From: Carcharhinus amblyrhynchos
Lineage: Eukaryota
Assembly (NCBI GenBank): GCA_965287045.1
Contig: OZ336888.1
Span: 15,934,001 to 15,998,000 of the forward strand
Direction of reading: 5' to 3'
DNA: 64,000 bases
The notes under the pieces were generated by a model. That model worked only from the letters and a program-made list of their open reading frames with translations. It was not told where the DNA came from and searched no databases. Position numbers and translations under genes: made by a program. Shown here piece by piece: positions 1 through 63,902 of this stretch (position 1 is the stretch's first letter; every line of letters begins with the position of its first letter).

Positions 1-884
1 TTCAGAGACTACTGTCAGCGGTGAGTATTGTTTTTGGCACTCTCGTGTCCTGAAATTAATTTATTTGATGGGGCGATTAATATTGTTTCAAATTTGCCCC
101 ACGACTTAGGGCCAACGGCAATGACTCCATCAGGTGTACCAACTGTTCCTGAGACAGCAATTACTGGTGAGTAGATCTCCTTACACATTATAGCCTGATA
201 TTAATTTCAAGCTATTTGTAATTTAACACTCTGCAGCATTTTTTTCCTGTTACCTTAAACCAGCATGAACTGGAATGATAGTAAATCCCATTGTTTCTGA
301 AACGAAGAGTAATGATGTATGTATTCATTCACATTGTCACAATAGTATTTCAAAACCTCGAATAATTAGTTTTCAAAAGCAAACAACATTTGAAACTTAT
401 GAAATTTAATGTTGCGTTTGCTGAGAGCTGGACAATTATATTGTTATTCCTTTAGTCAACATGCCTGAGGAATTATTCTGGAGGGAAACCTCAGAATTTG
501 AGTGAGAGAATTATTACTGATCTGCGAGATTGTTTATGGGTCATGTTTGATCCGTACTGAGGTGTAAGCAATACCTGGTTAAGAATTTGACTAAGATAAT
601 GATACTTATAGTTAAACATTTCCTTGGAAATGAATTGCAGTCGTGGTGAATAAATACTCTGTCCAAATGTCTGTGCTGTTTAGGGCCATCAAGAACTGCA
701 GGAACTGGAGGACCAACCACTTCAGAGACCACCGTCAGTGGTGAGTTTCAGTTTATCGTACTCACCACATGAAATTAATTCTTGTGCTTCCTGGACGAAT
801 GTTATTTCATATTATTTGTGCTCCTAGGCCCAGTGGCAATGACTGTGACAGGTACACTTCCTGTTTCTGAGAGCAGAATTACTG
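1..884 (+). CDS. Unit 1 micro-exons
   Basis: A (3' part) 1-20, B 110-166, C 684-740, D 828-884; AG/GT flanked, 57 nt. Confidence 0.8.
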
Positions 885-30800: not shown

Positions 30801-33800
30801 TTCAGTTTATCATACTCACCACATGAAATTAATTTTTGTGCTTCCTGGACTAATGTTATTTCACATTATTTCTGCTCCTAGTCCCAGTGGCAATGACTGT
30901 GACCGGTACAGTTCCTGTTTCTGAGAGCAGAATTACTGGTGAGCAGAGCTTCTTTCTTGTTCAAAGTTGCTGTTGGTTTTTTGCTATTTGTGGTTTTTGG
31001 CTCAACCATACATCTACGGTTACATTGGAGCTGCACGTGGAAGCAGGGCAGTGACTCATAGTTTCCGAAACTGTGATTAACAATGACTGAATGTATTCTC
31101 AGTGCCATATGATGTTTGCGATGCCAGGGTGTCCCTGACAAGGGACATGTTGTTGGTGCGTCATTGCAGTTCACTATATTTTCAGTCCATTCATATCGTT
31201 GATTTTGAGTGTGTACCAGTTGAATTGTTCCATATTGCATTTTGTAAGCATCTTCATGTTAGCACGTGCTTGTTTTTGCTTTGTGGTGTTGGTAGAATGA
31301 TCAACGGATAGAAATTTTCATGAGCAGTCATAGATCCTGCTTTTGACATTCTGCATTGCTTTTTTTTTTAAATTGCTAAATTTAAAATTTAACATATTTT
31401 CATTTGTATTTGAAGAGCTAGGATTTTGGTGGTATTGACTTTATTCTCGTGAATGATGATCGATAAGGCATCTGGAGATTTGAGATGTACAATAATGCAT
31501 GGTTTGTCTGTGACTGAAAAGCCTACTGGAAAGCACCTCATTTGTAGACTAGCAGAATGACAGACTGTTTTATTTTGATTTGACAGTATAGATAAACTTT
31601 GCTGGTGAAATGAATGTGCAGAGAGACAGAAATAATTATTCCCTCCAACAGGATAAATTCAAAGCAGTAAATTTCAATATTGTCATGAATTCCTGATCGG
31701 AAATGCCAATGGGATTTTTGAAAGACACACCTTATTCTTTGGAAAATAAATGATTTAGCCACTGTTAAAATTTCATTTTCACTGGCAAATATTCTCCAAA
31801 TAATTCTGGGAAAATTTAATGCTAAGATGAATGAAAAATCTTGGGAAGCAATTTCACTGTGAATGAGTAAATATTCTCTACAAATTCTGCTTCTCTTTAG
31901 GGCCAACACCATTCACAGGAATTGGAAGACCTACAACTTCAGAGACTACTGTCAGTGGTGAGTATTGTTTTTAGCATCCTCGTCATCTGAAATTAATTGA
32001 TTTGATTGGTACATTAATATTGTTTCAAATTTGCTCGATTGCTTAGGGCCAACAGCAATGACTCCATCAGGTGTACCAACTGTTCCTGAGACAGCAATTA
32101 CTTGTGAGTAGATCTCCTCACACACCATAACCTGATGATAATTTTGAGCAATTTGTAATTTAATACTCTGCAGCATTTTTTCTGTTAACTTCGACCAGTA
32201 ACATCTCGGATCGTAGTAACTCTCATTGTTTCTGACACTGGGAGTAACGACGGGTGTATTAATTCACATTGTCACAATAATATTTCAGAATCTTGAATAA
32301 TTATCTTTCACATGCAAACAACATTTGAAACTTGTAAAACTTAATGTCATGCTGCCGAGAGCAGGTCAATGACATTGTTGTTCCTTCAGTCATCGTACCT
32401 GAGGAACTGTTCTGAAGGGAAACCTCGGAATTTGAGTGAGGGAATTATTGCTGATCTTGAGAATGTTTATGGTTCATGTTTGATCCTTACTGAGGTGCAA
32501 GCAATTACTGGTTAAGAATTTGATTAAGGTAATGGTGCTTATAATTAAACATTTCCTTGGAAATGAATTGCAATAGTAGTGAATTAATGCTCTGTCCAAA
32601 TGTCTATGCTGTTCAGTGCTAAGAAGAACTGCAGGAACTGGAGGACCAATCACTTCAGAGACCACCGTCAGTGGTAAGTTTCAGTTTAATCGTATTCATC
32701 ACGTAAAATTAATTCGTGGGCTTCATGGACTCACCTTATTTCATATTATCTCTGCTCCCTAGGCCCAATGGGAATGACTGTGACCGGCACACTTCCAGTT
32801 TCTGAGAGCAGAATTACTGGTGAGCAGAGCTTCTTTCATGTTATAAGCTGCTGTTAGTTTTGTGCTAGTTGTGATTTTTAACGCTACCCTGGGTCTACAG
32901 TTATTTTGGACCTGCACCAGGTACCAGGGCAGTCACTCAGATAGTTTCTGAGCCTGTGATTAAGAATGATTGAATGTATTCTCAGTGTCATACGATGTTT
33001 GCCATGCCAAGGTGTCCCAGGAAAGGGACATGTTGTTGGTGCATCATTGCCGTTCTCTGTATTTTCAGTCCATTCAGATGGAAGGGTTTGATTGTGTACC
33101 AGTTGAGTTGTTCCATGTTGCTTTTGATAAGCATCTTCCTGTTTGAATTTGCTTGTTTCTGCTTTGTGGTGATGGTAGAATTGTCAACAGATAGGAATTA
33201 TTGATTGCCATCTTTCAGTTTTTTTATACATTTGAACATAAGAACATAAGAACATAAGAAATAGGAGCAGGAGTAGGCCATCTAGCTCTTCAAGCCTGCC
33301 CCACCATTCAATAAGATCATGGCTGATCTGTCGTGGCTCAGTTCCACATTCCCGCCCTCTCCCCATAACCCTTAATCCCCTCTCTTATCAAAAACCCATC
33401 AACCCGCATCTTAAAAATATTTAGTGAGGTAGCCTCCACCACTTCAACGGGCAGAGAATTCCAGAGATTCACCACCCTTTGAGTGAAGAAGTTCCTCCTC
33501 AACTCTGTTCTAAACCGCCCCCCCTTTATCTTGAGGCTGTGCCCCCTAGTCCTATTATCCTTTCTGAGCGGGAAGAGTCTCTCCACCTCTATCCTATCCA
33601 TCCCATTCATCATCTTATACGTCTCAATGAGATCTCCCCTCATTCTTCTAAACTCCAACGAGTACAAGCCTAGTTTATTCAGCCTCTCCTCATAGCTCAA
33701 CCCCCTCAACTCCGGCATCAGCCTAGTAAACCTCCTCTGCACTCCCTCCAAGGCCAAAATATCCTTGCGTAAGTACGGCGCCCAAAACTGCACACAGTAC

Positions 33801-36800
33801 TCCAGCTGCGGCCTCACCAATGCCCTATACAGCCGCAGCAAGACCTCCCTACTTTTGTATTCAATCCCCCTCGCTATGAAGGCCAGCATCCCATTCGCCT
33901 TCCTGATCACATGCTGCACCTGCAAGCTGGGTTTTTGCAACTCATGCACAAGGACCCCAAGGTCCCTCTGCACCGTCGCCTGCTGCAGTTTTTTGCCACG
34001 TAAGTGATAATCCTTCCTACCAAAGTGGACCACATGCATGTCTCTTGCTAATTGATGCACATTCATGTGGACACTGAGAGAGCTTTTCATTGAGGGGAAA
34101 TTGGAATATTAAGTGCTTCCTGACAGAGTAGATGTCTTGCATTATCAATTCTAACGTTTTGAAGAGGATAGTGCTGTTGAATATGATTATTGATGAAAAT
34201 GTAGGTTGTGCAACGTGACTGTGAAGTCAGCTTGAGACTGTGAATGGCCGCACTTATGAATTAAAAAAAAAATAAGGCAGACTGTCCAAACTTTAATGAG
34301 CGGTCATAGAGGCTGGTTTTGACATTCTGCAATGCTGTTTTGGAAGCGTACATTGAAATTTAAAATTTGATATGTTTACATTTGTGTTTCGATGAGCTAG
34401 TATTTTGGTGCTATTGACTTCAGATCATTAAATCCATTTATTTGCATGAATGATGATCGATAAGGCATCAGGAGATTTGAAATGTACAATAATGCATGGC
34501 TTGTCTGTGACTGAAAGGCCGAATGGAAAGCACTTCATTTGTAGACTAGCAGAACGACAGACTGTTTTATTTTGATTTGGCAATATGGATAAACTTTGCT
34601 GGTGAAATGTATGTGCAGACAGACAGAAATAATTATTCCCTCCAACAGAATAAATTCAAAGCAGTAAATTTCAATATCTTAATGAATTCCTGATCATAAA
34701 TGCCAGTGGGAATTTTGAAAGACACACCTTATTCTTTGGAAAATAAATGATTTAGCCACTGTTAAAACTTTATTTTCACTGGCAAATATTCTCCAAATAA
34801 TTTGGGGAAAATTTAGTGCCACATTTGTTGACCCCCATGTTGAAGTTTTTGTAATTGCCTGAAAAGTAGCTGGTTTTTGCAGGCAACTTGGTCGAGGACC
34901 TGTTCTGAATGGTAAGCGCTGCATTTGTGGAAGGGAATGATTAATTGTGTAGTTTGCGTACCGGTGTTTTCCTTTTACCTTCGCAATGTGGAAGCATTTG
35001 CCACTTGAGGCTTTGACTGACATAGTGATGCTAAGATGAATTAAAAATCTTGGGAAGCAATTTCACCATTAATGAATAAATATTTTGTACAAATTCTGCT
35101 TCTCTTTAGGGCCAACGCCATTCACAGGAACTGGAAGACCTCCAACTTCAGAGACTACTGTCAGTGGTGAGTCTTGTTTTTAGCATCCTCGTCATCTGAA
35201 ATTAATTGATTTGATTGGTAGATTAATATTGTTTCAAATTTGCTCAATTACGTAGGGCCAACAGCAATGACTCCATCAGGTGTACCAACTGTTCCTGAGA
35301 CAGCAATTACTGGTGAGTAGATCTCCTTACACATTATAACCTGATGATAATTTTGAGTAATTTGTAATTTAATAATCTGCAGCATTTTTTCTGTTAACTT
35401 GGACCAGTAACACTTCAGATGATAGTAACTCCCATTGTTTCTGACACTGAGAGTAATGATGAGTGTATTAGTTCACATTGTCAGAATAATATTTCAGAAT
35501 CTTAAATAATAATCTTCCACAAGCAAGCAACATTTGAAACTTGTGAAATTTAACCTTATGTTGCTGAGAACAGGTCAATGATATTGTTATTCCTTCAGTC
35601 AACATTCCTGAGGAACTGTTGTGAAGGGAAACACGAGAATTTGAGTGAGGAAATTATTGCTGATCTCGAGCATGTTTATGGGTCATGTTTGATCCTTACT
35701 GAGGTGCAAGCAATTCCTGGTTAAGAATTTGGCTAAGATAACAATGCTTATAATTAAACATCTCCTTGGAAATGAATTGCAGTAGTAGTGAATAAATGCT
35801 CGTCCAAATGTCTGTGCTGTTTAGGGCCAACAAGAACTGCAGGAACTGGAGGACCAACCACTTCAGAGACCACCATCAGTGGTGAGTTTCAGTTTTATCG
35901 TACTCACCACATGAAATTAATTTGTGTGCTTCATGGACTCATCTTGTTTCCTATTATCTCTGCTCCCTAGGCCCAATGGGAATGACTGTGACAGGTACAC
36001 TTCCTGTTTCTGAGAGCAAAATTACTGGTGAGCAGAGCTTCTTTCATGTTAAGAGCTTCTGTTAGTTTTGTACTATTTGTGATTTTTAACTGTAGGCCTA
36101 CAGTTATGTTGGACCTGCACCAGGTAGCAGGGCAGTCACTCAGATAGTTTCTGAACCTGTGATTATGAATGATTGAATGTATTCTCAATGTCGTACGATG
36201 TTTGTGATGCTGAGGTGTCCCAGCTAAAGGACATGTTGTTAGTGCATCTTTGCAGTTCACTGTATTTTCAGTCCATTCAGATGGAAGGGGTGAATGTATA
36301 TCAGTTGAGATGTTCCATATTGCTTTTGGTGAGCATCTTTCTGTTTTGAATATGCTTTGTGTTGAATGTGAAATGGTCAACAGATAGGAATTAGTGATTG
36401 CTTTATTTCAATTTTTGTACGCATTTGCTTCTCAGTGCAGATACTGTAAACACATGCATGTTGGTGTTTCACTTGCCTGCTAATGGATGCATTTTCATGT
36501 TGACACTGAAGGAGCTCTTCAGTGAATGGAAATTGGAATAATAAATGCTCCCTGATAGAGTAGGTGTCTTGTATTATCAATTATAATGTTTGAAAGTGGG
36601 CAGTGTTATTGAATATGATTATTGATCATAAAGTAGGTTGTGTCCGTGATGTCCATGAATGGCAGCATTTATGAATTGAAGAAAATAGTAAAGCAGACTG
36701 TCCAAACTTTAATAAGCACTGGAAGATTCTGGTTTTGACATTCTGCATTGCTGTTTTGGAAGCATATATTGAAATTTAAAATTTAACATATTTTCATTTG

Positions 36801-39800
36801 TATTTTGAAGAGCTGGGATTTTGGTGCTATTGATTTTAGATCGCTAAATGCATTTATTCACGTGAACGATGCTTGGTAAGGCATCTGGAGATTTGAGATG
36901 TACAATAATGCATGGTTTACGTGTGACCGAAAAACCTACAAACTTTTTTGTAATTGCCTGAAAAGTAGCTGGTTTTTGAAAGAAACTTGGTCAAGGAACT
37001 GTTCTGAATGATGAGCACTGCACTTGTGGAAGGGAATGATTAACTTTGTAGTTTGTGAATGGATATTTTCGTTTTCTCTTCACAATGTGGAACCATTTGC
37101 CATGTGAGGCTTTGACTGACATAATGATGCTAAGATGAATAAGAAATCTTGGGAAACAATTGCATCAGTAATGAATAAATATTCTGTACAAATTCTGCTT
37201 CTCTTTAGGACCGACACCATTTGGAGGAACTGGAAGACCTACAACTTCAGAGACTACTGTCAGCGGTGAGTATTGTTTTTGGCATCCTCGTCATCTGAAA
37301 TTAATTTATTTGATGGGTAGATTAATATTGTTTCAAATTTGCTCTACTCCTTCGGGCCAACTGTAATGACTTCATCAGGTGTACCAACTGTTCCTGAGAC
37401 AGCAGTTACTGGTGAGTAGATCTCCTTGCATGTTCTAACCTGATATTAATTTCGAGCTATTTGTAATTTAATACTCTGCAGCATTTTTTCTCTTGAGTGA
37501 GAGAATTATTGCTGATCTGCGAGATAGTTTATGGGACATATTTGATCCTGACTGAGGTGCAAGCAAAACCTGGTTAAGAATTTGACTAAGATAATGTTAC
37601 TCATAACCAAACATTTCCTTGGAAATGAATTGCAGTTGTAGTGAATAAATACTCTGTCCAAAATCTGTACTGTTTAGGACCAACAATAACTGCAGGAACT
37701 GGAGGACCAACAACTTCAGAGACCACCGTCAGTGGTGAGTTTTGATTTTATCGTAACTGCCACATTAAATCAATTTGTGTGCTACGTGGACTAATGTTGT
37801 TTCATATTATCTCTGCTTCCTAGTGCCAATGGCAATGACTGCAACAGGTACACTCCCTGTTTCTAAGAGCAGAATTACTGGTGAGCAGAGCTTCTTTCAT
37901 GTTGTAAGCTGCTATTAGTTTTGTGCTATTTTTGATTTTTAACCCTACCGTAGGTCTATAGTTACGTTGGACCTGAATGAGTCAGTTGGGCAGTCCCTCG
38001 GATAGTTTCCGAAAATGTGACTAACAAGGATTGGATGTATTCTCAGTGTCATACAATGTTTATAAGGACATAAGAACATAAGAAATAGGAGCAGGAGTAG
38101 GCCATCTAGCCCTTCGAGCCTGCCCCGCCATTCAATAAGATCATGGCTGATCTGAAGTGGATCAGTTCCACTTTCCCGCTTTCTCCCCATAACCCTGAAT
38201 TCCCTTGTCTATCAAAAGCCTATCTACCCGTGACTTAAATATATTTCGTGAGGTAGCCTCCACCGCTTCAATGGGCAGAGAATTCCAGACATTCACCACC
38301 CTTTGAGTGAAGGAGTTCCTCCTTAACTCTGATCTAAATGCCCCACCCTTATCTTGAGGATGTGCATTCTCGTCCTGCTATCCTTTCTAAGCGGGAAGAA
38401 TCTCTCTACCTCTACCCTATCCATCCCCTTCATTATCTTATATGTCTCTATAAGATACCCCCGCATCCAAAATAAAGGACTCTATCATTCTGCAAATCTA
38501 CAAATGCACTCCATTCGGCCTTCCAGTCACAAACAAACCATGCATTATTGTACATCACAAATCTCCTGATCCCTTGCCAATCATCATTCATGCGAGTTAA
38601 TGGATTTAGCGATCTAAAGTCAATAGCACCAAAATCCTAGCTCTTCAAAATGCAAATGTAAATATGTCAAATTTTAAATTTCAATATATGCAGGTTATAT
38701 GGCATCCATGTTTGTGATGCCAAGGTATCCCTGGCAAGGGACATGTTGTTGGTGCATCTTGCAGTTCAGTGTATTTTCAGTCCATTCGGATGGTTTGAAT
38801 GTGTACCAGTTGAATTGTTCCATTTTGCTTTTGGTCAGCATCTTTTTGTTTGAATAGGCTTGTTTTTGCTTTGTCCTGATGGTAAAATAGTTAACAGGTA
38901 GGAATTAGTTATTTCTTTATTTCAGTTTTTCTACACATTTGCTTCTCAGTGCAGAAGCTGTAAACACATGCATTTGGTGCTTCACTTGCCTCACTGCTAT
39001 ATGATATATATTCATGTTGAGATGAAAGAGCTTTTCATTGAAGGAAAATTGGAATATTAAGTGCTACCTGACACAGTAGATGTCTTGCATTATCAATTAT
39101 AATATTCAGAAGAGGGCAGTGTTATTGAATATGATTATTAATGATAATGTAGGTTGTGCGGCATGCCCTGAAGTCAACTTGAGATCATGAAATGCAGCAT
39201 TTGTGAATTTGAAAAGATAATAATAAGGAAGACTTTGCAAACATTAATGAGCACTGTTACATCTGGTCTTGACATTCTGCAATTCTGTTTTAGAAGCGTA
39301 TATTGAAATTTAAAATTTGATATATTTACATTTGCATTTTGAAGAACAAGGATTTTGGTGCTGTTGACTTTAGATCGCTAAATCCATTTATTCACATGAA
39401 TGATGATTGGTATGGGATCAGGAGATTTGCGATGTACAATAATGCACGGTTTGTTTGTGACTGAAAGGCTGAATGGAAAGCATTTGTAGATTTGCAGAAT
39501 GACAGAGTCTTTTATTTTGGTTCAGCAGTGTGATAGACTTTGCTGGTGAAATTTATATGCAGACAGATAGTCATAATTATTCCTTTCAACAGAATAAATT
39601 CAAAGCTGTAAATTTCAATATCATAATGAATTCCTGATCAGAAATGCCATTTTTTCAGTGGGATTTTTGAAAGACAAACTTTATTCTTTGGAAAACAAAT
39701 GATTTAGTCAGCTTTAAAATTTCACTTTCACTGGCAAATAATATCCAAATATTTTTGAGAAAATTTAGTGCCACATTTGCTGCCCCCATGTTGAATTTTT

Positions 39801-48800: not shown

Positions 48801-51800
48801 TTACATTTATGTTTTGAAGAGCCAGTATTTTGGTGCTCTTGACTTCAGATTGTTAAATCCATTTATTTTCATGAATGATGATCGATATGGCATCAGGAGG
48901 TTTGAGATGTACAATAATGCATGGTTTGTCTGTGACCGAAAGGCCGAGTGGAAAGCATCTCATTTGTAGACTTGCAGAACAACTGACTGTTTTATTTTGA
49001 TTTGGCAGTATGGATAAACTTTGCTGGTGAAATGTATGTGCAGACAGACAGAAATAATTATTCCCTCCAACAGAATAAATTCAAAGCAGTAAATTTCAAT
49101 ATCCTAATGAATTCCTGATCGGAAATGCCAGTTGGATTTTTGGAAGACATACCTCATTCTTTGGAAAATAAATGGTTTAGCCGCTGTTAAAACTTTATTT
49201 TCATTGGCAAATATTCTCCAAATAATTTGGGCAAAATTTTGTTCCGCATATGCTGACCCATGTTGAAGTTTTTGTAATTGCCAGAAAAGTAGCTGGTTTT
49301 TGCAGGCAACTTGGTCAAGGACCAGTTCTGAATGGTAAGCACTGCATTTGTGGAAGGGAATGATTAATTTTGTAGCTTGCGTACCAATATTTTCCTTTTT
49401 CCTTCGCAATGTGGAAGCATTTGCCACTTGCGGTTTTGACTGACATACTGATGCTTAGATGAATTAAAAATCTTGGGAAGCAATTTCACCATTAATGAAT
49501 AAATATTCTGTCCGAATTCTGCTTCTCTTTAGGGCCAACACCATTCACAGGAACTGGAAGACCTACAACTTCAGAGACTACTGTCAGTGGTGAGTCTTGT
49601 TTTTAGCATCGTCATCATCTAAAATTAATTGATTTTATTTTTAGATTAATATTGTTTCAAATTTGCTCAATTACGTAGGGTCAACAGCAGTGACTCCATC
49701 AGGTGTACCAGCTGTTCCTGAGACAGCAATTACTGGTGAGTAGATCTCTAACACATTATAACCTGATGATAATTTTGAGCAATTTGTAATTTTAATACTC
49801 TGCAGCATTTTTCTGTTAACTTGGACCAGCAACACTTCAGATGATAGTAACTCCAGTTGTTTCTGACACTGAGAGTCATAATGAGTCTGTTAGTTCACAT
49901 TGTCACAATAATATTTCGGAATCTTGAATAATTAGCTTTCACAAGCAAACAACATTTGAAACTTGTGAAATTTAACATTGTGTTACTGAAAGCAGGTCAA
50001 TGATATTGTTATTCCTTCAGTCAACATGCCTGAGGAACTGTTGTGAAAGGAAACACCAGAATTTGAGTGAGGGAATTATTGCTGATCTTGAGAATGTTTA
50101 TGGGTCATGTTTGATCCTTACTGAGGTGCAAGCAATTCCTGGTAAAGAATTTGACTAAGATAACGATGCTTATAATTAAACATTTGCTTGGAAATGAATT
50201 GCAGTAGTAGTGAATAAATGCTCTGTCCAAATGTCTGTGCTGTTTAGGGCCAACAAGAACTGCAGGAACTGGAGGACCAACCACTTCAGAGACCACCATC
50301 CGTGGTGAGTTTTGATTTTACCATAACTGTCGCATTAAATCAATTTGTGTGCTTCATGGACTCATCTTGTTTCATATTATCTCTGCTCCCTAGGCCCAAT
50401 GGGAATGACTGCAACAGGTATACTTCCTGTTTCTGAGAGCAGAATTACTGGTGAGCAGAGCTTCTTTCATGTTAAAGGCTGCTGTTAGTTTTGTGCTATT
50501 TTTGATTTTTAACCCTTCCCTAGGCCTACAGTTATGTTGGACTTGCACAAGGTAGCAGGGCAGTCCCTCAGATAGTATCTAAAAATGTGACTAACAGTGA
50601 TTGAATGTATTCTCAGTGTCATACGATGTTTGTGATACCAAGGTGTCCTTGGCAAGTTTCATGTTGTTGGTGCGTCATTGCAGTTCACTATATTTTCAGT
50701 CCATTCAGGTGGAAGGGTTTAAATGTGTACCAGTTGAATTGTTCCATATTGCTTTTGGTCAGCATCTTTTTGTTTGAATGTGCTTGTTTTTGCTTTGTCC
50801 TGATGGTAAAATGGTTAACAGATAGGAATTAGTGATTTCTTTATTTCAGTTTTTCTACACATTTGCTTCTCAATGCAGAAGCTGTACAAAGAACAAAGAA
50901 CAACCCAGCACGGGAAACAGGCCCTTCGGCCCAACGAGCCCGCACCGCCGCATCTTCCTACTCCTACCCTGCCCTTTGTGTATGTGAGTGGAACCCCTAA
51001 TGTAGTCAGATTCAGGGGAGAATAGTGTCAATTTGGTACACCAATCAGCCTCAGAGCACATCTTTGGGGTGTGGGAGGAAACTGGAGTGCCCAGAGGAAA
51101 CCCACGCAACCACAGGGAGAATGCGCAAACTCCCACAGACGCAAGCCCAAATCCATGTATCTGCACAGCTAGCAGTGATAGTCACTGAGCTGTTGTGGCG
51201 CCCGTCTGCTGGTCCAGGATTAAGCACACACAACGACATGAAGTACTAGGCCACTCCCGGAACCTCCAAGAGCAGCCCACGCACGACCCACCGTGTGCAT
51301 GCTCCTCGTTTGACAACAAGGTGGACCAACACCTGTGGAATAAAAAGACAAAACATTAACATGTAATACTACATTTCCGGTGTCGTCCCGAGGCTCTGAC
51401 CCTATTTAATACACTCTAGTATAACCCTCCATCCTTGTTTCGCTCATGTGTCTATCTACGTAAGCCTTAAACAAGTCCAATGTGCCTGCCTCCACCACCC
51501 TACTCGGTAGCGTGTTCCATACCCCCACGACCCTCTGCATGAAAAACCTTCGTCTCATATCCAAATTATACTTCTCCCCCCTCACCCTTAGATCGTGACC
51601 TCTCTAGGGAAAAGCCTACCACTGTTGACTCTATCTATTCCCTTCAGTATTTTATACACCTCTATCATATCGCCCCTTAATCTCCGTCTTTCTAAGGAGA
51701 AGAGCCCCAGTTTCTCCAACCTTTCCTCGTAACTCAGTCCTTCCATGCCAGGCAACATCCTGGTAAACCTCCTCTGCACCCTCTCTAGGGTCTCCACGTC

Positions 51801-54800
51801 CTTCCAGTAGTAAGGTGACCAGAACTGGACGCAGTACTCCAAATGCGGTCTAACCAACGTTCTGTACAACTGATGCATTAGACGGCAGCTCTTATACTCT
51901 ATACCCCTTCCTATAAAGGCTAGCATTCCATAAGCTTTCTTCACAACCTTCTCGACTTGTGTTGACACCTTCAGAGACTTGTGCACCTGCTCTCCCAGGT
52001 CCCTCTGTATTTCTATACTCTTAATCGGTCTACCTTTTATCACGTAACTCCTCCCTGCATTATTCCTTCCAAAATGCATCACCTGTAAAGACATGCGTTT
52101 TGGAGTTTCACTTGCTTCACTGCTATAGGATGTATATTAATGCTGAGACAAAAAAGCTTTTCATTGAAGGAAAGTTGGAATATTAAGTGCTACTTGACAC
52201 AGTAGATGTTTTGCATTATCAGTTATAACATTCAGGGACGTATTTTACACAGAGCGTGGTGGGGGCCTGGAATGCGCTGCCAAGCAGGTTGGTGGTGGCG
52301 GACGCACTAGGATCGTTAAGACTTACCTGGATAGTCATGTGAGCAGACTGGGAATGGAGGGATACAGAAGAATAGTCTATTTGAACCAATGAGCGGCGCA
52401 GACTTGGAGGGCCGAAGGGCCTGTTTCCTGTGCTGTTTCGTTCTTTGTCTTTGTTCTTTGTTCTCTGCATTCAGAAGAGGGCAGTGTTATTGAATATGAT
52501 TATTAATGATGATGCAGGTTGTGCGGCATGCCCCTGAAGTCAACTTGAGACCATGAATTGCAGCATTTGTGAACTTGAAGGAAGATAATAATAAGGAAGA
52601 CTTTCCAAACATTAATGAGCACTGGTATATCTGGTCTTGACATTCTGCATTTCTGTTTTAGAAGTGTATATTGAAATTTAAAATTTGATATGTTTACATT
52701 TGCGTTTTTAAGAGCTAGGATTTTGGTGCTCTTAACTTTAGATCGCTAAATCCATTTATTCGCATCAGTGATGACTGGTAAGGGATCAGGAGATTTGAGA
52801 TGTACAATAATGCATGGTTTGTTTGTGACTGAAAGGCCGAATGCAAAGCATTTGTAGATTTGCAGAATGACAGAGTCGTTTGTTTTGGCTCAGCAGTGTG
52901 ATGGACCTTGCTGGTGAAATTTATATGTAAACATACAGACGTAATTATTCCTTCCAACAAAGTAAGTTTGAAGCAGTAAAGTTCAATATCATAATTTCCT
53001 GATCTGGAATGTCACCTGCGGGATTTTTGAAAGACATACGTTATTCTTTGGAAAATAAATGATTTAGTCACTGTTAAAATTTCACTTTCACTGGCTAATA
53101 ATATCCAAATAATTTTGGGAAAATTTAGTGCCACATTTGCTGACCCCATGTTGAATGTTTTGTAATTGCCTGAAAAGTAGCTGGTTTTTGAAGGCAACTT
53201 GGTGGAGGACCTGTTCTGAATGGTAAACACTGCATTTGTGGAAGGAAATGATTAATTTTGCAGTTAGTGAATGGATATTTTCCTTTCTCCTTCTCAATGT
53301 GGAACCGGTTGAGGCTTTGACTGACATAATGATGCTAAGATGAATAAAAAATCTTGGGAAACAATTTCACTGTTAATGAATAAATATTGTGTACAAATTC
53401 TGCTTCTCTTTAGGGCCAACGCCATTCACAGGAACTGGAAGACCTACAACTTCAGAGACTACTGTCATTGGTGAGTCTTGCTTTTAGCATCTTTGTCATC
53501 TGAAATTAATCGATTTGATTGGTAGATTAATATTGTTTCAAATTTGCTCGATTACATGGGGCCAATAGCAATGACTCCATCAGGTGTACCAACTGTTGCT
53601 GAGACAGCAATTACTGGTGAGTAGATCTCCTTACACATTGTAACTTGGTGTTAATGTTAAGCAATTTGTAATTTAATACTCTGCAGCATTTTTCCTGTTA
53701 ACTTGGACCAGCACCGACTTGGATGTTGTAACTTCCATTGTTCCTGAAACGAAGGGCCTGATTTTACCATTTTCATTCTAAGTGCCGATTCTGGGCATAG
53801 TACGGATCTGACTTTGAAATCTGCTTTCAGGCGCCCCCATCCGCTCTGAGCCATCTCCAGTCCGATTCGTGTTCTGGGCAGGGCTTATCGCTTTGGGAAC
53901 CATAGGAGCTCTGAACTGTGCTTGCGCAGTTAGAAAAAAATTGGAATTGCTCCTGTGCTGCAGAAAGATGAGAAATGGGCCTGGGAGCGAAAAGCAGGAG
54001 TGAGGTTGGATCTTGGATTGGGGAGGAGGCAGGCAGGTAAGATGTATCTCGTTGGCAGGTGGATAACCGGGGGCAGTGATGTGTGTGGGTAGTGGGGGGG
54101 GTGGATAAGGAGGACACGCACACATCACCACCCTCCTTATCCACCCCCCCACTACCCAGACCGATCGCCACCCCTGCAACCCTCCCACCCGACTGATTTC
54201 CCACTGAGTGGCAGAGGACCCCCCCTAGCTCCCCCACAAGAGATCTATCTGCCATCTGCCGCACCCCCTTCTCCCCCCCCCCCCCCACAAGAGACCCACC
54301 TCCCTCCTCCCTCCTCCCACTCCCCAAGACAACGATCTGGCCTCACACCACCACCCCCCTCCCCGACAACGAACTTGTATCAGTTCCCCCCCAGCTATCC
54401 AGAAAATGGCCTGGCTTCACTCCGCCTCCTCTACAGAAGAACATCTGACCCATCTCCTCCCCCCACCACCATCAGACAATGATCAGCCTCCCCCCACCAT
54501 CAGCCCTCCCCCCGGCACCAAACAAGGAACAGCCCTCCCCCCCCACCACCAGACAACGATCAGCCCTCCCCCCCCCCACAACCAGACAACCATCAGCCCT
54601 CCCCCCCACCACCAGACAATGATCAAACCCCCCTTCCCCCCGTGATACATCTGACCCCCCCTCCTCTTCCTCCCCTCCCAACCAGACAACGATCTGACCT
54701 CACTCCCCTCCTCCCCACTCCAAGCAGAGAATGATCTGGCCCGCCTCCACCCCCACCCCCACCACTGATCTGAGTCGGAGAGCCATTGCAAACACTGAAC

Positions 54801-57800
54801 GTACTCTTCAGAGGCTGGAGCGCCTGACTCAGGCTTTTATTCAGCAGGTCCCTAAAAGCAATGTTCTGGATTGGTAACCGCGGTGGTAAAAGAGGAAATG
54901 CTGATAGAATTGGGCGGGCGGTTCATTAATTCAATTTAAATGCATGCAAATGTGGAATGGATTCCTGCCATTCACAACTCTTGGTAAAGTGGCAATCTGC
55001 GTGGACTCGGATGCAGATCGCGATAAAGGCCTCACACCCGACTTTACCACAATTTAATGTCCGAAAACGGGCGCAAATAGTTGGTAAAATTGGGCCTGAA
55101 GAATTATAAGAACATAATAAGAAATAGGAGCAGGAGTAGGCCATCTAGCCCTTCGAGCCTGCCCCGCCATTCAATAAGATCATAGCTGATCTGTCGTGGC
55201 TCAGTTCCACATTCCCGCCCTCTCCCCATAACCCTTAATCCCCTCTCTTATCAAAAACCCATCAACCCGCGTCTTAAAAATATTTAGCGAGGTAGCCTCC
55301 ACCACTTCAACGGGCAGATGTATTTTCTTATTGTCACAATAATATTTCAGAGCCTTGAATAATCAGTTTTCACAAGCAAGGAAGATTTGAAACTTGTGAA
55401 ATTTCATGTTGTGTTTGCTGAGAACAGGTCAGTGATATTGTTATTCCTTCAGGCAATATGGCTGAGGAACTGTTCTGAAGGGAAACCTCAGAATTTGAGT
55501 GAGGGAATTATTGTTGATCTGTGAAATAGTTTATGGGTCATGTTTGATCCTTGCTGAGGTGCAAGCAATTCCTGGTTAAGAATTTGGTTAGGATAATGAT
55601 GCTTATAACTAAACATTTCCTTGGAAATGAATTGCAGTAGTAGTGAATAAATATTCTGTCCAAATGTCTGTGCTGTTTAGGGCCAACAAGAGCTGCAGGA
55701 ACTGGAGGACCAACCACTTCAGAGACCACCATCAGTGGTGAGTTTTGGTGCAATTGTACCAGCCTCATTAAATTAATTTGTGTGCTTCGTGGACTAATGT
55801 TGTTTCAACTTATCTCTGCTTCCTAGCACCAATAGCAATGACTGTGACAGGTACGCTTCCTGTTTCTGAGAGCAGAATTACTGGTGAGCAGAGCTTCTTC
55901 GTGCTACAAACTGCTATTAGTGTTGTGCTATTTGTGACTTTTAACTCTTCCATGTGTCTGCTGTTAAACCAGATCCACACCAGATAGCAGGACAGTCACT
56001 TCGTTTCTGAAACTGTGATGAACAACGATTGAATGTATTCTCAGTGTCATATGAAGTTTGTGCTGCCAAGGTGTCCCAGGCAAGGGATGCATCATTGCAG
56101 TTCACTGTTGCAGTTACTGATGCATCATTGCAGTTCACTGTATTTTCAGTCCATTCAGATGGAAGGGTTTGAATGTGTATCACTTGAGTTGTTCCCTATT
56201 GCCTTTGGTCAGCATCTTCTTGTTTGAACGTGCTTGTTTTTGCTTTGTGCTGAATGTAAAATGTTCAACAGATAGGAATTAGTGATTGGTTTATTTCAAT
56301 TTTTGTACACATTTGCTTCTCAGTGCAGAAACTGTAAACACATACGTGTTGGTGTTTCACTTGCCTGCTAATTGATGCATATTCATGTTGACACTGAAGG
56401 AGCTTTTCAGTGAATGGAAATTGGAATAATAAAAGCTACCTGATAGAGTACATAAGAACATAAGAAATAGGAGCAGGAGTAGGCCATCCAGCCCTTCGAG
56501 CCTGCCCCGCCATTCAATAAGATCATGGCTGATCTGTCATGTCTCAGTTCCACATTCCCGCCCTCTCCCCATAACCCTTAATCCCCTCGCTTACCAAAAA
56601 CCCATCAACCCGCGTCTTAAAAATATTTAGCGAGGCAGCCTCCACCACCTCAACGGGCAGAGAATTCCAGAGATTCACCACCCTTTGAGTGAAGAAGTTC
56701 CTCCTCAACTCCGTTCTAAACCGCCCCCCCTTTATCTTGAGGCTGTGCCCCCTAGCCCTACTGTCCTTTCTGAGCGGGAAGAGCCTCTCCACCTCTATCC
56801 TATCCATCCCATTCATTATCTTGTACGTCTCAATGAGATCTCCCCTCATTCTTCTAAACTCCAACGAGTACAAGCCTAGTTTATTCAGCCTCTCCTCATA
56901 GCTCATCATAGCTCAACACCCTCAACTCCGGTATCAGCCTAGTAAACCTCCTCTGCACTCCCTCCAAGGCCAAAATATCCTTGCGTAAGTACGGCGACCA
57001 AAACTGCACACAGTACTCCAGCTGCGGCCTCACCAATGCCCTATACAGCCGCAGCAAGACCTCCCTACTTTTATATTCAATCCCCCTTGCTATGAAGGCC
57101 AGCATCCCATTAGCCTTCCTGACCACCTGCTGCACCTGCAGGCTGGGTTTTTGCGACTCATGCACAAGGACCCCGAGGTCCCTCTGCACCGTCGCCTGCT
57201 GCAGTTTTTTGCCCCGTAAGTAATAGTCCTTCCTACCATTATTCCTACCAAAGTGGACCACCTCGCACTTGCCAACATTACATTCCATTTGCCATTTCCT
57301 GGCCCATTCTCCCAGCATATCTAGATCCTCCTGCAGACTCTCCACACCCTCCGCGCAATTTGCCGTTCCACCAATCTTGGTGTCATCAGCAAATTTCGAC
57401 ACCATACACCATACACTACATAGAGTAGATGTCGTGCATTATCAATTATAATGCTTGAAAGTGGGCAGTGTTATTGAATATGATTATTGATTATAATGTA
57501 GGTTGTGTCCGTGATATCCATGAATGGCAGCATTTATGAATTTAAAAAGATAGTAAGGCAGACTGTCCAAACTTTAATGAGCACTGGAAGATCCTGGTTT
57601 TGACATTCTGCATTGCTATTTTGGAAGCTTGTATTGAAATTTAATATTTAACACATTTTCATTTCCATTTTGAAGAGCCAGGATTTTGGTGCCATTGATT
57701 TTAGATCGCTAAATGCATTTATTTCTATGAACGATGATTGGTAAGGTATCCGGAGATTTGAGATGCACAATAATGCGTGGCTTGTCTGTGACCGAAAAGC

Positions 57801-63800: not shown

Positions 63801-63902
63801 GTGCTTCCTGGACTAATGTTATTTCATATTACCTCTGCTCCCCAGGCCCAATAACAATGACTGTGACGGGTACGCTTCCTGTTTCTGAGAGCAGAATTAC
63901 TG
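1..63902 (+). CDS. Internal portion of a giant multi-exon mucin-like (PTS-rich) gene built of tandem 57-nt phase-1 micro-exons
   Basis: 89 related exon copies, 84 with pyrimidine-tract+AG acceptors (first A acceptor outside window) and GT donors (mostly GTGAG); 57 nt each except one 48-nt in-frame variant; no in-frame stops seen; consensus 76-aa unit is 41/76 P+T+S and 12/76 G with no Cys. No start, stop or globular-domain exon in the window, so no gene name assigned. Confidence 0.85.
2242..3160 (+). CDS. Unit 2 micro-exons
   Basis: A 2242-2298, B 2388-2444, C 2959-3015, D 3104-3160. Confidence 0.8.
4677..5596 (+). CDS. Unit 3 micro-exons
   Basis: A 4677-4733, B 4823-4879, C 5394-5450, D 5540-5596. 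Confidence 0.8.
7206..7262 (+). CDS. Unit 4 exon D only (A, B and most of C deleted)
   Basis: ccctag|GCCCAATGGGA...ATTACTG|gtgagc; only the 3' remnant of C (caccgtcagtg|gtgagt, ~7106-7116) remains upstream. Confidence 0.75.
8789..9713 (+). CDS. Unit 5 micro-exons
   Basis: A 8789-8845, B 8935-8991, C 9511-9567, D 9657-9713. Confidence 0.8.
10836..11170 (+). mobile_element. Full-length HE1-like tRNA-derived V-SINE
   Basis: tRNA-like head gggcggcacggtagcgcagtggttagcactgct...gttcgattccc, V-domain gtgggtttcctccgggttctccggtttcctcccacagtccaaagatg, tail gattctatgattctatga; absent from the paralogous intron near 46720. Confidence 0.9.
11556..12465 (+). CDS. Unit 6 micro-exons (B inactivated)
   Basis: A 11556-11612, C 12265-12321, D 12409-12465. 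Confidence 0.78.
11702..11759 (+). pseudogene. Pseudo-exon B of unit 6
   Basis: Acceptor AG->TG (cattg|GGCC) and a 1-nt insertion (ccaaactg) giving 58 nt. Confidence 0.75.
13979..14897 (+). CDS. Unit 7 micro-exons
   Basis: A 13979-14035, B 14125-14181, C 14695-14751, D 14841-14897. Confidence 0.8.
16415..17333 (+). CDS. Unit 8 micro-exons
   Basis: A 16415-16471, B 16561-16617, C 17131-17187, D 17277-17333. Confidence 0.8.
18839..19722 (+). CDS. Unit 9 micro-exons
   Basis: A 18839-18895, B 18984-19040, C 19522-19578, D 19666-19722. Confidence 0.8.
20578..20808 (-). mobile_element. 5'-truncated HE1-like SINE
   Basis: Reverse complement of the 3' part of the SINE at 10836 (tagaatcatagaatcatagaa tail; ggaggaaaccggagcacccg V-domain). 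Confidence 0.85.
21343..24204 (-). pseudogene. CR1 ORF2 endonuclease/reverse transcriptase with one in-frame TGA
   Basis: APE motifs (FNARS, VAVTETWL, GVYYRPPN, VGDIN, LDLVL, SDH) and RT motifs (KAPGPDG, NYRPVSLTS, QHGF, DFSKAFDKVPH, GVPQGSVLGP, FADD). The 615-aa and 318-aa ORFs are in one frame: AHGI-TGA(22357-22359)-GQVARWIENWL, plausibly CGA->TGA. Confidence 0.93.
24225..25118 (-). CDS. CR1 ORF1 protein (zinc finger/coiled coil + SGNH esterase-like domain)
   Basis: CVRC..CSKC followed by heptad LQRLRARVRQLEGRL; VIVVGDG, VCLPGAGVKDV, VIVHVG blocks typical of the CR1 ORF1 esterase; ends GLN*. Confidence 0.85.
   Translation of the reverse strand: MVGNIGRNVSCVRCHMWEFLVVSRVPKVHICSKCLELQRLRARVRQLEGRLEDAFLVRENEEIMAGNHEQEEVSRAEEKGGWTTVRRGKRKKKSSRGPPASPEAPHGSSTGAQKDRHKEVTDLEGQKGAGKVIVVGDGRVRGIDRRFCGQRRDSRMVVCLPGAGVKDVTDRVEGILKGEGAQAEVIVHVGEGDIGRRSRVEVRRQFRELGAKLKSRTSRVALSGLLPSISRAKNDDIMQLNAWLRDWCRVEGFTFVDHWEVFRREGQLYRRGGENLNGRGTNVLAGRLAGVFMKGLN
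25842..26762 (+). CDS. Unit 10 micro-exons
   Basis: A 25842-25898, B 25988-26044, C 26561-26617, D 26706-26762. Confidence 0.8.
28317..28519 (+). CDS. Unit 11 exons C and D (A, B deleted)
   Basis: C 28317-28373, D 28463-28519; pre-A intron joins pre-C intron near 28242. Confidence 0.78.
30040..30938 (+). CDS. Unit 12 micro-exons (C shortened in frame)
   Basis: A 30040-30096, B 30185-30241, C 30747-30794 (48 nt), D 30882-30938. Confidence 0.8.
31901..32819 (+). CDS. Unit 13 micro-exons
   Basis: A 31901-31957, B 32047-32103, C 32617-32673, D 32763-32819. Confidence 0.8.
33234..34033 (-). mobile_element. 5'-truncated CR1 LINE (ORF2 C-terminus + 3' UTR)
   Basis: RDLGV, LVRPQLEYCVQFWAP, RRNFFTQRVVNLWNSLP; (aacataag)n tail. 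Confidence 0.92.
35110..36027 (+). CDS. Unit 14 micro-exons
   Basis: A 35110-35166, B 35256-35312, C 35825-35881, D 35971-36027. Confidence 0.8.
37209..37880 (+). CDS. Unit 15 micro-exons (B acceptor mutated)
   Basis: A 37209-37265, B 37355-37411 (acceptor AG->CG), C 37678-37734, D 37824-37880. Confidence 0.78.
38062..38707 (-). mobile_element. Composite insertion: CR1 3' fragment (38062-38466) + inverted copy of array intron (38467-38690)
   Basis: (aacataag)n tail and CR1 3' sequence, then the reverse complement of a D-A intron segment; whole insert flanked by atgttt direct repeats (38056-38061, 38708-38713). Confidence 0.85.
40058..40953 (+). CDS. Unit 16 micro-exons
   Basis: A 40058-40114, B 40204-40260, C 40753-40809, D 40897-40953. 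Confidence 0.8.
41813..42021 (-). mobile_element. 5'-truncated HE1-like SINE, same insertion site as 20578 copy
   Basis: Same flanks (gaatgatgatc|ctagaatcatag ... cacg..|gaaaaggcatcaggag) and same truncation point. Confidence 0.85.
42673..43157 (+). CDS. Unit 17 micro-exons (B-C intron collapsed to 79 nt)
   Basis: A 42673-42729, B 42819-42875, C 42955-43011, D 43101-43157. Confidence 0.8.
44660..45578 (+). CDS. Unit 18 micro-exons
   Basis: A 44660-44716, B 44806-44862, C 45377-45433, D 45522-45578. Confidence 0.8.
47112..48021 (+). CDS. Unit 19 micro-exons
   Basis: A 47112-47168, B 47258-47314, C 47821-47877, D 47965-48021. Confidence 0.8.
49533..50450 (+). CDS. Unit 20 micro-exons
   Basis: A 49533-49589, B 49679-49735, C 50248-50304, D 50394-50450. 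Confidence 0.8.
50887..52082 (-). mobile_element. 5'-truncated CR1 LINE of the same family as 20831-25211
   Basis: Colinear with ~20831-22040 including the long 3' UTR and (gaacaaa)n tail; possible ctgta target-site duplication. Confidence 0.92.
52236..52467 (+). mobile_element. CR1 3'-end fragment
   Basis: ttttacacagagcgtggtgggggcctggaatgcgctgcc (FTQSVVGAWNALP), gggccgaagggcctgtttcctgtgctg, (ttctttg)n tail; 7-bp TSD cattcag. Confidence 0.88.
53414..55883 (+). CDS. Unit 21 micro-exons (B acceptor mutated; B-C intron expanded by insertions)
   Basis: A 53414-53470, B 53560-53616 (AG->GG), C 55681-55737, D 55827-55883. Confidence 0.77.
53754..55097. mobile_element. Non-autonomous TIR DNA transposon (PIF/Harbinger-like MITE)
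   Basis: Imperfect ~16-bp TIRs gggcctgattttacca / tggtaaaattgggcct, 3-bp gaa duplication on both sides, no transposase ORF. Superfamily inferred only from GG-starting TIR and 3-bp TSD. Confidence 0.7.
54470..54700 (+). repeat. C-rich ~31-bp minisatellite inside the TIR element
   Basis: Repeats of ccagacaacgatcagccctccccccccacca. Confidence 0.75.
55106..55318 (-). mobile_element. CR1 3'-end fragment
   Basis: Nearly the same as ~33240-33457 (aagaaataggagcaggagtaggccatctagccc...). Confidence 0.88.
56451..57419 (-). mobile_element. 5'-truncated CR1 LINE
   Basis: SKFADDTKIGG through C-terminus; frameshift from a short duplication near 56900; 8-bp TSD atagagta; short filler at the 5' junction. 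Confidence 0.92.
58529..58730 (+). CDS. Unit 22 exons C and D (A, B deleted)
   Basis: C 58529-58585, D 58674-58730; deletion junction near 58345. Confidence 0.78.
60264..61182 (+). CDS. Unit 23 micro-exons
   Basis: A 60264-60320, B 60410-60466, C 60980-61036, D 61126-61182. Confidence 0.8.
63008..63902 (+). CDS. Unit 24 micro-exons (B and C acceptors mutated)
   Basis: A 63008-63064, B 63154-63210 (AG->CG), C 63701-63757 (AG->TG), D 63846-63902. Confidence 0.72.

Follow-up and report, generated by a model that had tools for sequence, protein, structure and literature searches.

A 211-kb array of 57-nt exons in a shark genome, probably the PTS region of a MUC19-family gel-forming mucin gene

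Introduction

Mucin regions with a high content of proline, threonine and serine (PTS) that are encoded by many exons have been published before. In chicken Muc13, the PTS region is composed of multiple near-identical exons with one repeat per exon, and control of its length by splicing was proposed (PMC1552070). The repeats of chicken MUC2 are spread over exons 32-44 (PMC3549977), and the Otogl skin mucin of Xenopus tropicalis, a gel-forming protein of 3,417 aa with a VWD-mucin-cystine knot layout, has a multi-exonic mucin domain documented by long-read cDNA and mass spectrometry (PMC5789918). The gel-forming MUC19 group is characterized by three VWD-C8-TIL units, a PTS region and a cystine knot and, in mammalian MUC19, by the lack of a fourth VWD, and three Muc19 paralogues were reported from the ghost shark (PMC4948705). 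The central repeat exon of human MUC19 is described as uninterrupted (PMC13345508), and in dogfish skin muc19, the paralogue being unspecified, marks mucosal cells (PMC13558645). Here we analyze a 64,000-nucleotide stretch of the genome of the shark Carcharhinus amblyrhynchos (plus strand of contig OZ336888.1, hereafter C19, positions 15,934,001-15,998,000; this whole stretch is referred to as the window), which carries a tandem array of 57-nt exons. With a probability of roughly 0.88, the window is part of the PTS region of a living MUC19-family gel-forming mucin gene, the 57-nt exons likely being spliced into one long mRNA for a predicted secreted protein of ~6,000 residues.

The locus shares with the MUC19/spiggin group the domain order, the side of the phylogenetic tree, a motif in the D3 assembly and the adjacency to LRRK2. 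It differs from that group in that a VWC exon was not found, that CysD persists as a remnant, that the PTS region is distributed over ~250 equal exons, and in being the first of six paralogues. Chicken Muc13 is a transmembrane SEA mucin, whereas the shark gene encodes a predicted secreted VWD mucin, its 264 exon copies alternating among four types. The Xenopus Otogl mucin has the same gel-forming layout with a multi-exonic mucin domain, whereas the shark gene is known from genome sequence alone. Two RefSeq proteins, Mustelus 'mucin-19-like' XP_078090731.1 and Rhincodon 'mucin-2-like' XP_048466531.1, form a clade with the shark gene; these models (1,421 and 1,489 aa) contain intact CysD domains and lack both the array and the knot. 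Our literature search, to which subscription journals were mostly out of reach, found no published description of this shark array. Multi-exon mucin PTS regions are already published and are also present in three neighboring paralogues; what stands out here is the scale.

Results

The mini-exon array in the window

Exon copies were detected solely by their resemblance to four seed exons (types D, A, B, and C), with neither a splice-site nor an open-frame filter, in sequence free of N runs over the surrounding 464 kb. An ungapped scan of the window with the seeds returned 87 copies, and a gapped search returned 89 copies overlapping it (21 D, 21 A, 23 B, and 24 C) in the near-regular order D-A-B-C. 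The encoded modules are 19 aa long and rich in T, G, P, and S. By the combined measure of AG/GT ends, a length divisible by three and an open phase 1-1 frame, 84 of the 89 copies are splice-intact and together provide ~1,593 codons. An initial annotation, made from the letters of the window, had proposed about 89 tandem 57-nt exons, up to four to each unit of ~2.5 kb, with an open frame of about 1,590 aa continuing past both ends; all of this was borne out, the unit measuring ~2.4 kb by its median introns and the array extending ~118 kb upstream and ~29 kb downstream of the window. The accompanying statement that all exons are AG/GT-bounded and of phase 1-1 holds for the 84 intact copies and fails for five from which the acceptor AG is gone, one of them also carrying a +1 insertion (Table 1). 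It was likewise correct that the open reading frame (ORF) track is blind to the array, the longest ORFs in the window being pieces of long interspersed nuclear elements (LINEs) on the minus strand. Tandem Repeats Finder, run on the window, did not report the array and returned only two unrelated rows. The type A exon at window positions 32047-32103 ends with T instead of G, which yields Leu when joined to its neighbor; skipping onward to an exon starting with GA would create a stop codon.

Selection on the exons

In order to compare change in the exons with change in the DNA duplicated along with them, we used 55 of the 57 D-A pairs and 68 of the 74 B-C pairs, in all of which both exons measure 57 nt and the intron 81-94 nt. 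Parsimony changes were counted for each tree and set against base-specific rates obtained from the co-duplicated introns. No stop gain was observed against 22.8 expected. As the copies are mosaics and errors in the intron alignment inflate the neutral rate, a scaled stop test was used to allow for both; the expectation then fell to 14.7 at the synonymous rate (P 4e-7) and to 9.1 at the non-synonymous rate, the most cautious choice (P 1e-4). Non-synonymous changes made up 288 of 459, where 73% was expected (P 1e-6), corresponding to a ratio of non-synonymous to synonymous rates (dN/dS) of 0.62. At the splice sites, changes were observed 0 times at the acceptor G (20.6 expected), twice at the donor G (20.6), 0 times at the donor T (13.0) and twice at donor position +5 (20.6). 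The introns contain 117 distinct indels in 900 alignment columns, 19 of which are multiples of three. From these, ~25 frameshifting indels were predicted for the exons, whereas at most three were observed, all in splice-dead copies; in-frame exon indels (four distinct: -9, -9, -24, and +6) were close to the ~5 predicted.

On this sequence comparison, the array exons are under purifying selection on both frame and splice sites. Satellite DNA changing neutrally along its whole unit was rejected, as stops, frameshifts and splice changes are much rarer in the exons than the intron rate predicts. The exon-versus-intron rate of stops and indels had been set in advance by the initial annotation as a way to overturn its coding reading; the exons accumulate neither at the intron rate, and that reading stands.

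Flanking exons and the gene model

Of the mucin exons that the initial annotation had suggested looking for, a walk along the flanks located a signal-peptide-like start, VWD exons, a cystine knot and a CysD exon, the last of them broken (Table 1). The predicted elasmobranch secreted mucin gained in detail and was refined to the MUC19 family. Upstream of the array, 31 N-terminal exons (3,694 nt) form a 1,231-aa open frame with canonical splice sites, which matches the Mustelus protein P0001 from residue 1 to ~1,290. The hydrophobic start, judged by eye, is common to P0001. Three VWD/C8/TIL assemblies (D1, D2, and D'-D3) were recognized, with Pfam VWD, TIL, and C8 above cut-off for three exons. 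The PDB matches of the N-terminal region are to MUC2, MUC5AC, and MUC5B, and one exon matches the solved structures of MUC2, MUC5AC, MUC5B, and VWF. One upstream Cys-rich exon shows 88% identity to Mustelus asterias 'mucin-19-like' P0001 and 64% to Rhincodon typus 'mucin-2-like'. The CysD exon, decayed here, is intact in the Mustelus orthologue, and the Rhincodon orthologue contains three CysD domains.

Downstream of the array, the two knot exons keep an open frame and canonical splice sites, and 11 Cys of the knot align with those of nine other knots, including the paralogue and mammalian MUC19 knots. Between the end of the array and the stop codon, a search for a VWD4 exon identified knot exons only. 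When the 31 N-terminal exons are joined to the 246 intact exons of the array and to the final three, the resulting model comprises 280 coding exons and encodes 5,994 aa without an internal stop. Its stalk of 4,657 aa consists of 51% P+T+S, with 38% S+T (~1,780 Thr/Ser), contains no Cys, and is expected to be disordered.

Family identity

LRRK2 exons were identified upstream on the same strand, encoding the ROC (E 7e-22) and kinase (E 4e-25) domains, with the last exon candidates ~17 kb away from the gene. A genome-wide COR-A search missed LRRK2 on C19, and the gene was later located from exon candidates. In mammals, MUC19 follows LRRK2. For the MUC19 group, CNTN1 is expected downstream of the cluster; the DNA analyzed here extended to C19:16,988,000. 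Among the best 120 of 633 hits to D'D3, the best non-elasmobranch matches are mostly named mucin-19. In a quick, midpoint-rooted phylogenetic tree of 46 rows, the gene grouped with the Mustelus and Rhincodon proteins at 100 in the Shimodaira-Hasegawa-like approximate likelihood ratio test (SH-aLRT). That group was nested in a clade of elasmobranch proteins on the side of MUC19, which was split from MUC2/5 with an SH-aLRT of 100. The C8 motif of D3 follows the MUC19 pattern in lacking the two cysteines that MUC2/5 carry in addition; it is common to both orthologues and to four of the five MUC19 rows tried, the fifth giving no pattern match, while the extra cysteines are present in the three of five MUC2/5 rows that matched. 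This evidence supports the assignment, made on sequence features, to a MUC19-family gel-forming mucin of the shark adjoining LRRK2.

Membership in MUC2/MUC5 was rejected, as no fourth VWD assembly was found after the PTS region here. MUC6 resembles the locus in combining D1-D2-D'-D3, a PTS region and a knot with no fourth VWD. It was considered less likely on the position beside LRRK2, on the names of the non-elasmobranch matches given above, and on the sole alpha-adaptin matches lying on another contig (C35), AP2A2 being the neighbor of MUC6.

Layout and duplication history of the array

The whole array spans 211 kb (C19:15,815,715-16,027,124) and comprises 264 copies, all on the plus strand, of which 246 are intact and 18 splice-dead. 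In a genome search where 40 of 126 candidates were scored, all 41 scored matches lay inside the array. Median introns are 89 nt (D-A), 512 nt (A-B), 89 nt (B-C) and 1,526 nt (C-D). The exonic fraction is 0.066; the remaining 93% is intron-like DNA. None of the 242 intact copies of 57 nt is interrupted by a stop in the exon frame, whereas 161 of them are in one of the alternative frames and 99 in the other. The acceptor is TAG in 237 of the 246 intact copies, and the donor GTGAGT or GTGAGC in 222.

Growth of the repeat domain by duplication of whole exon-intron blocks, as put forward in the initial annotation, agrees with a hierarchy of identities between the exon types (D-B 75%, A-C 66%, and 51-56% across these two classes) and with younger duplicated blocks at offsets of 7.9, 8.9, 17.8, and 18.2 kb that are 95-98.6% alike. 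Average block identity is 81-83% and declines weakly with distance. Unequal crossing-over would duplicate such blocks, and the order of growth may have been from one exon to a pair with an 89-nt intron, to the 2.4-kb D-A-B-C unit, and on to blocks of 8-18 kb.

In all 15 dead acceptors of the array, it is the A of AG that is altered and never the G (e.g., window positions 37353, 53558, and 63152). Replacing the G at -1 by A would place a new AG one base further along and shift the frame, which may account for part of this asymmetry. Eight of the 15 are in type A exons, most with an in-frame AG 9 nt downstream, and by our own reading the first internal AG would give a shorter in-frame exon in 14 of the 15 acceptor-dead copies.

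RNA data and module searches

A search for sequencing runs holding the last exon gave no confirmed RNA run (four guessed to be RNA and six of unknown kind) and was uninformative on expression. Logan contigs from four runs of three studies, from related organisms and with RNA guessed or the kind unknown, were mapped to the 3' end of the array. Bins with one B exon, one C exon and the first knot exon were covered in all four runs; the uncovered bins included intron bins, the 48-nt exon in three runs and the last C exon in one, a pattern uninformative either way. Among 15 of the 140 joints, none connected two exons, and transposon contigs dominated the mapping.

A pooled hidden Markov model of the 19-aa peptide identified no convincing module in any of 120 proteins. 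With type-specific scoring, one whale-shark module outscored each of 1,000 shuffles when compared with types D and B but not with A and C; as three other proteins among 109 scored higher than this module, module likeness alone is unspecific.

Paralogues, other VWD loci and LINEs

The array gene is the first of six close MUC19-like paralogues on C19 (15.74-16.94 Mb). The five others (C19:16,136,000-16,944,000) all have VWD4 and a knot, the last one being encoded on the minus strand. Paralogues 2 and 5 contain single large PTS ORFs of 1,106 and 688 aa, while a crude filter gave 77, 216, and 22 short-exon candidates in paralogues 3, 4, and 6; a single large exon is thus found in two of the six and a short-exon array in four. 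The PTS region of the RefSeq protein Mustelus 'mucin-6-like' (P0011) maps in pieces to short, separate stretches of the fourth paralogue, so such short exons have already been joined in automatic annotation. The fourth paralogue (C19:16,477,000-16,681,000) consists of tandem 3.4-kb units with several Thr-rich exon candidates of 42-63 nt each, contains 28 copies of a CysD exon, and has an array far more homogeneous than that of the first.

A second, more distant cluster of VWD genes at C6:63.1-64.5 Mb is likely the MUC6/MUC2/MUC5 locus. Long tandem runs of VWD matches were observed at C3:136.11-136.21 Mb, with identical scores every 8 kb, and on contigs C596, C250, and C29; they resemble VWD repeat genes of the FCGBP type, possibly including very recent or assembly-made duplications. 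The nearly full-length LINE in a C-D intron of the window (Table 1) is a passenger, separate from the mucin, and shorter LINE 3' pieces occur near window positions 33,300-34,100, 51,600-52,100, and 56,500-57,400.

Table 1. Positions of the array exons, flanking exons and LINE discussed in the text (C19, positions on contig OZ336888.1; W, positions in the window)
Feature	Position	Strand	Remark
TATAAAA	C19:15,744,380		70 nt before the N-terminal exons
31 N-terminal exons	C19:15,744,450-15,806,641	+	signal-peptide-like start, D1-D2-D'-D3
Broken CysD exon	C19:15,807,110 to ~15,807,395
Diverged exon pair	C19:15,809,906-15,810,094		open, AG/GT-bounded, outside the model
Middle third of the mini-exon array	W:1..63902	+	89 copies of 57-nt phase 1-1 exons D/A/B/C; first copy cut by window start
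Type D exon, typical unit	W:2242..2298	+	from ungapped seed scan
Type A exon, same unit	W:2388..2444	+	after 89-nt intron following D
Type B exon, same unit	W:2959..3015	+	after 514-nt intron following A
Type C exon, same unit	W:3104..3160	+	after 88-nt intron following B
Dead A copy	W:11702..11759	+	acceptor AG gone, +1 insertion
LINE retrotransposon in C-D intron	W:21343..25160	-	antisense; ORF1-like hit to SGNH/OSK, endonuclease, RVT_1 interrupted by a stop codon
Intact B exon, 48 nt	W:30747..30794	+	in-frame 9-nt deletion, splice sites kept
A copy	W:37355..37411	+	acceptor AG gone
A copy	W:53560..53616	+	acceptor AG gone
A copy	W:63154..63210	+	acceptor AG gone
B copy	W:63701..63757	+	acceptor AG gone
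Last 48-nt exon	C19:16,028,214-16,028,261		downstream of the array
Cystine-knot exon 1	C19:16,031,297-16,031,405
Cystine-knot exon 2	C19:16,036,313 to stop
AATAAA	C19:16,036,711

Discussion

Taken as one gene, the exons on C19 would encode a protein that enters the endoplasmic reticulum, dimerizes tail-to-tail through its cystine knot, becomes densely O-glycosylated on the Thr/Ser residues of its stalk, is polymerized by its D domains and is secreted into mucus. Each of these steps is taken from the known biology of gel-forming mucins.

Several points weigh against a living MUC19-family gene with a fully used array. The borders of the N-terminal exons were set by hand along homologues. The tree was a quick search with a midpoint root, and its 46 rows (this gene and 45 picked by hand from the 120 hits) were without MUC6, VWF, and otogelin. 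Tested singly, the two knot exons scored below the Pfam cut-off for Cys_knot/DAN. The closest homologue of the knot carries a Cys-rich stretch before it, and a search of this region with six homologous C-termini as queries found no VWC exon, a search which a very diverged small exon could escape. The CysD exon is frameshifted relative to the Mustelus protein and has no GT at the expected donor, its acceptor being intact; Pfam gave no hit with its 5' part alone, and the model assumes that this exon is skipped, which preserves the frame. In the selection test, the acceptor A at -2 is weakly protected (9 changes vs 17.1 expected, P=0.025), and the pace of change at synonymous sites is 0.64 times that of the introns. 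Gene conversion, splicing signals or misalignment of the introns may therefore account for some of the conservation of the exons. Lastly, we infer the splicing, expression, tissue and protein of the array gene from sequence constraint alone.

The lesions in the CysD exon could be the first of a recently dead gene, the array having once been selected as exons and now being a pseudogene. The 18 splice-dead copies among 264 and the VWC exon that was not found would fit such a history, which we nevertheless regard as unlikely. The N-terminal and knot exons have remained open with canonical splice sites, and at least two lesions in the ~290 nt of CysD against none in the 3.7 kb of N-terminal exons fits the loss of one skippable exon. 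Moreover, splice-dead copies are the only ones with frameshifts, and stop gains are absent. The gene could also be alive with most of its array unused, either by producing short isoforms with D3, a few modules and the knot, or by being divided into two transcription units, one for the N-terminal half and one for the array plus knot. Each exon is indeed skippable in frame, the RefSeq orthologue models P0001 and P0002 end at the start of the array, and a knot-only model (P0121) exists in Cetorhinus. Yet constraint on splice sites and frame was seen across 123 tested exon pairs spanning the array, which is flanked by a single start and a single knot, and both RefSeq models apparently run past an exon donor and terminate in the intron, as truncated models do; an array left largely unused thus seems quite improbable.

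That the array is a non-coding macrosatellite or an assembly artefact, with its exon look inherited from one ancestral copy, might be suggested by its 93% of intron-like DNA and by the blocks that are 95-98.6% alike. The blocks average 81-83% identity, however, and are thus old, real copies, the sequence contains no N runs, and the array sits exactly between D3 and the cystine knot. The selection test, in which stops, frameshifts and splice changes are all much rarer than the neighboring introns would predict, refutes this explanation, and we give it almost no credence.

For the living MUC19-family gene, the dead exons find a simple place. As every array exon is of phase 1-1 and of a length divisible by three, gain, loss and skipping preserve the frame, and the loss of a splice site in one array exon would merely shorten the stalk. 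An exon deprived of a splice site would be left out of the message without harm, which makes it understandable that an otherwise intact gene contains 18 dead copies as well as a dead CysD exon. We tentatively propose, while considering it somewhat doubtful, that the ~250 interchangeable exons form a birth-and-death population and that individual cells set the length of the mucin by skipping exons in frame, on top of the effect of allele length. If exon skipping occurs, a single gene would yield mucins of graded size, with stalks of a few hundred to ~4,700 residues.

Human MUC19 also has many small exons. With titin (~360 exons) as a yardstick, the shark gene, if the model is true, would be among the most exon-rich of vertebrate genes and a natural assay, with hundreds of replicates, of which splice bases are protected by selection. 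It also points to a blind spot in annotation, as 211 kb without a long ORF, maskable as a repeat, appear to be most of a conserved coding gene. The initial annotation had considered the gene unannotated; RefSeq models of the orthologues in two sharks do exist and stop at the start of the array, and our analysis supplies a full-length model of this MUC19-type mucin. Finally, a cluster in which both PTS solutions are mixed would make the question raised by chicken Muc13, whether a multi-exon PTS region is ancestral and whether its length is tuned by splicing, testable in sharks.

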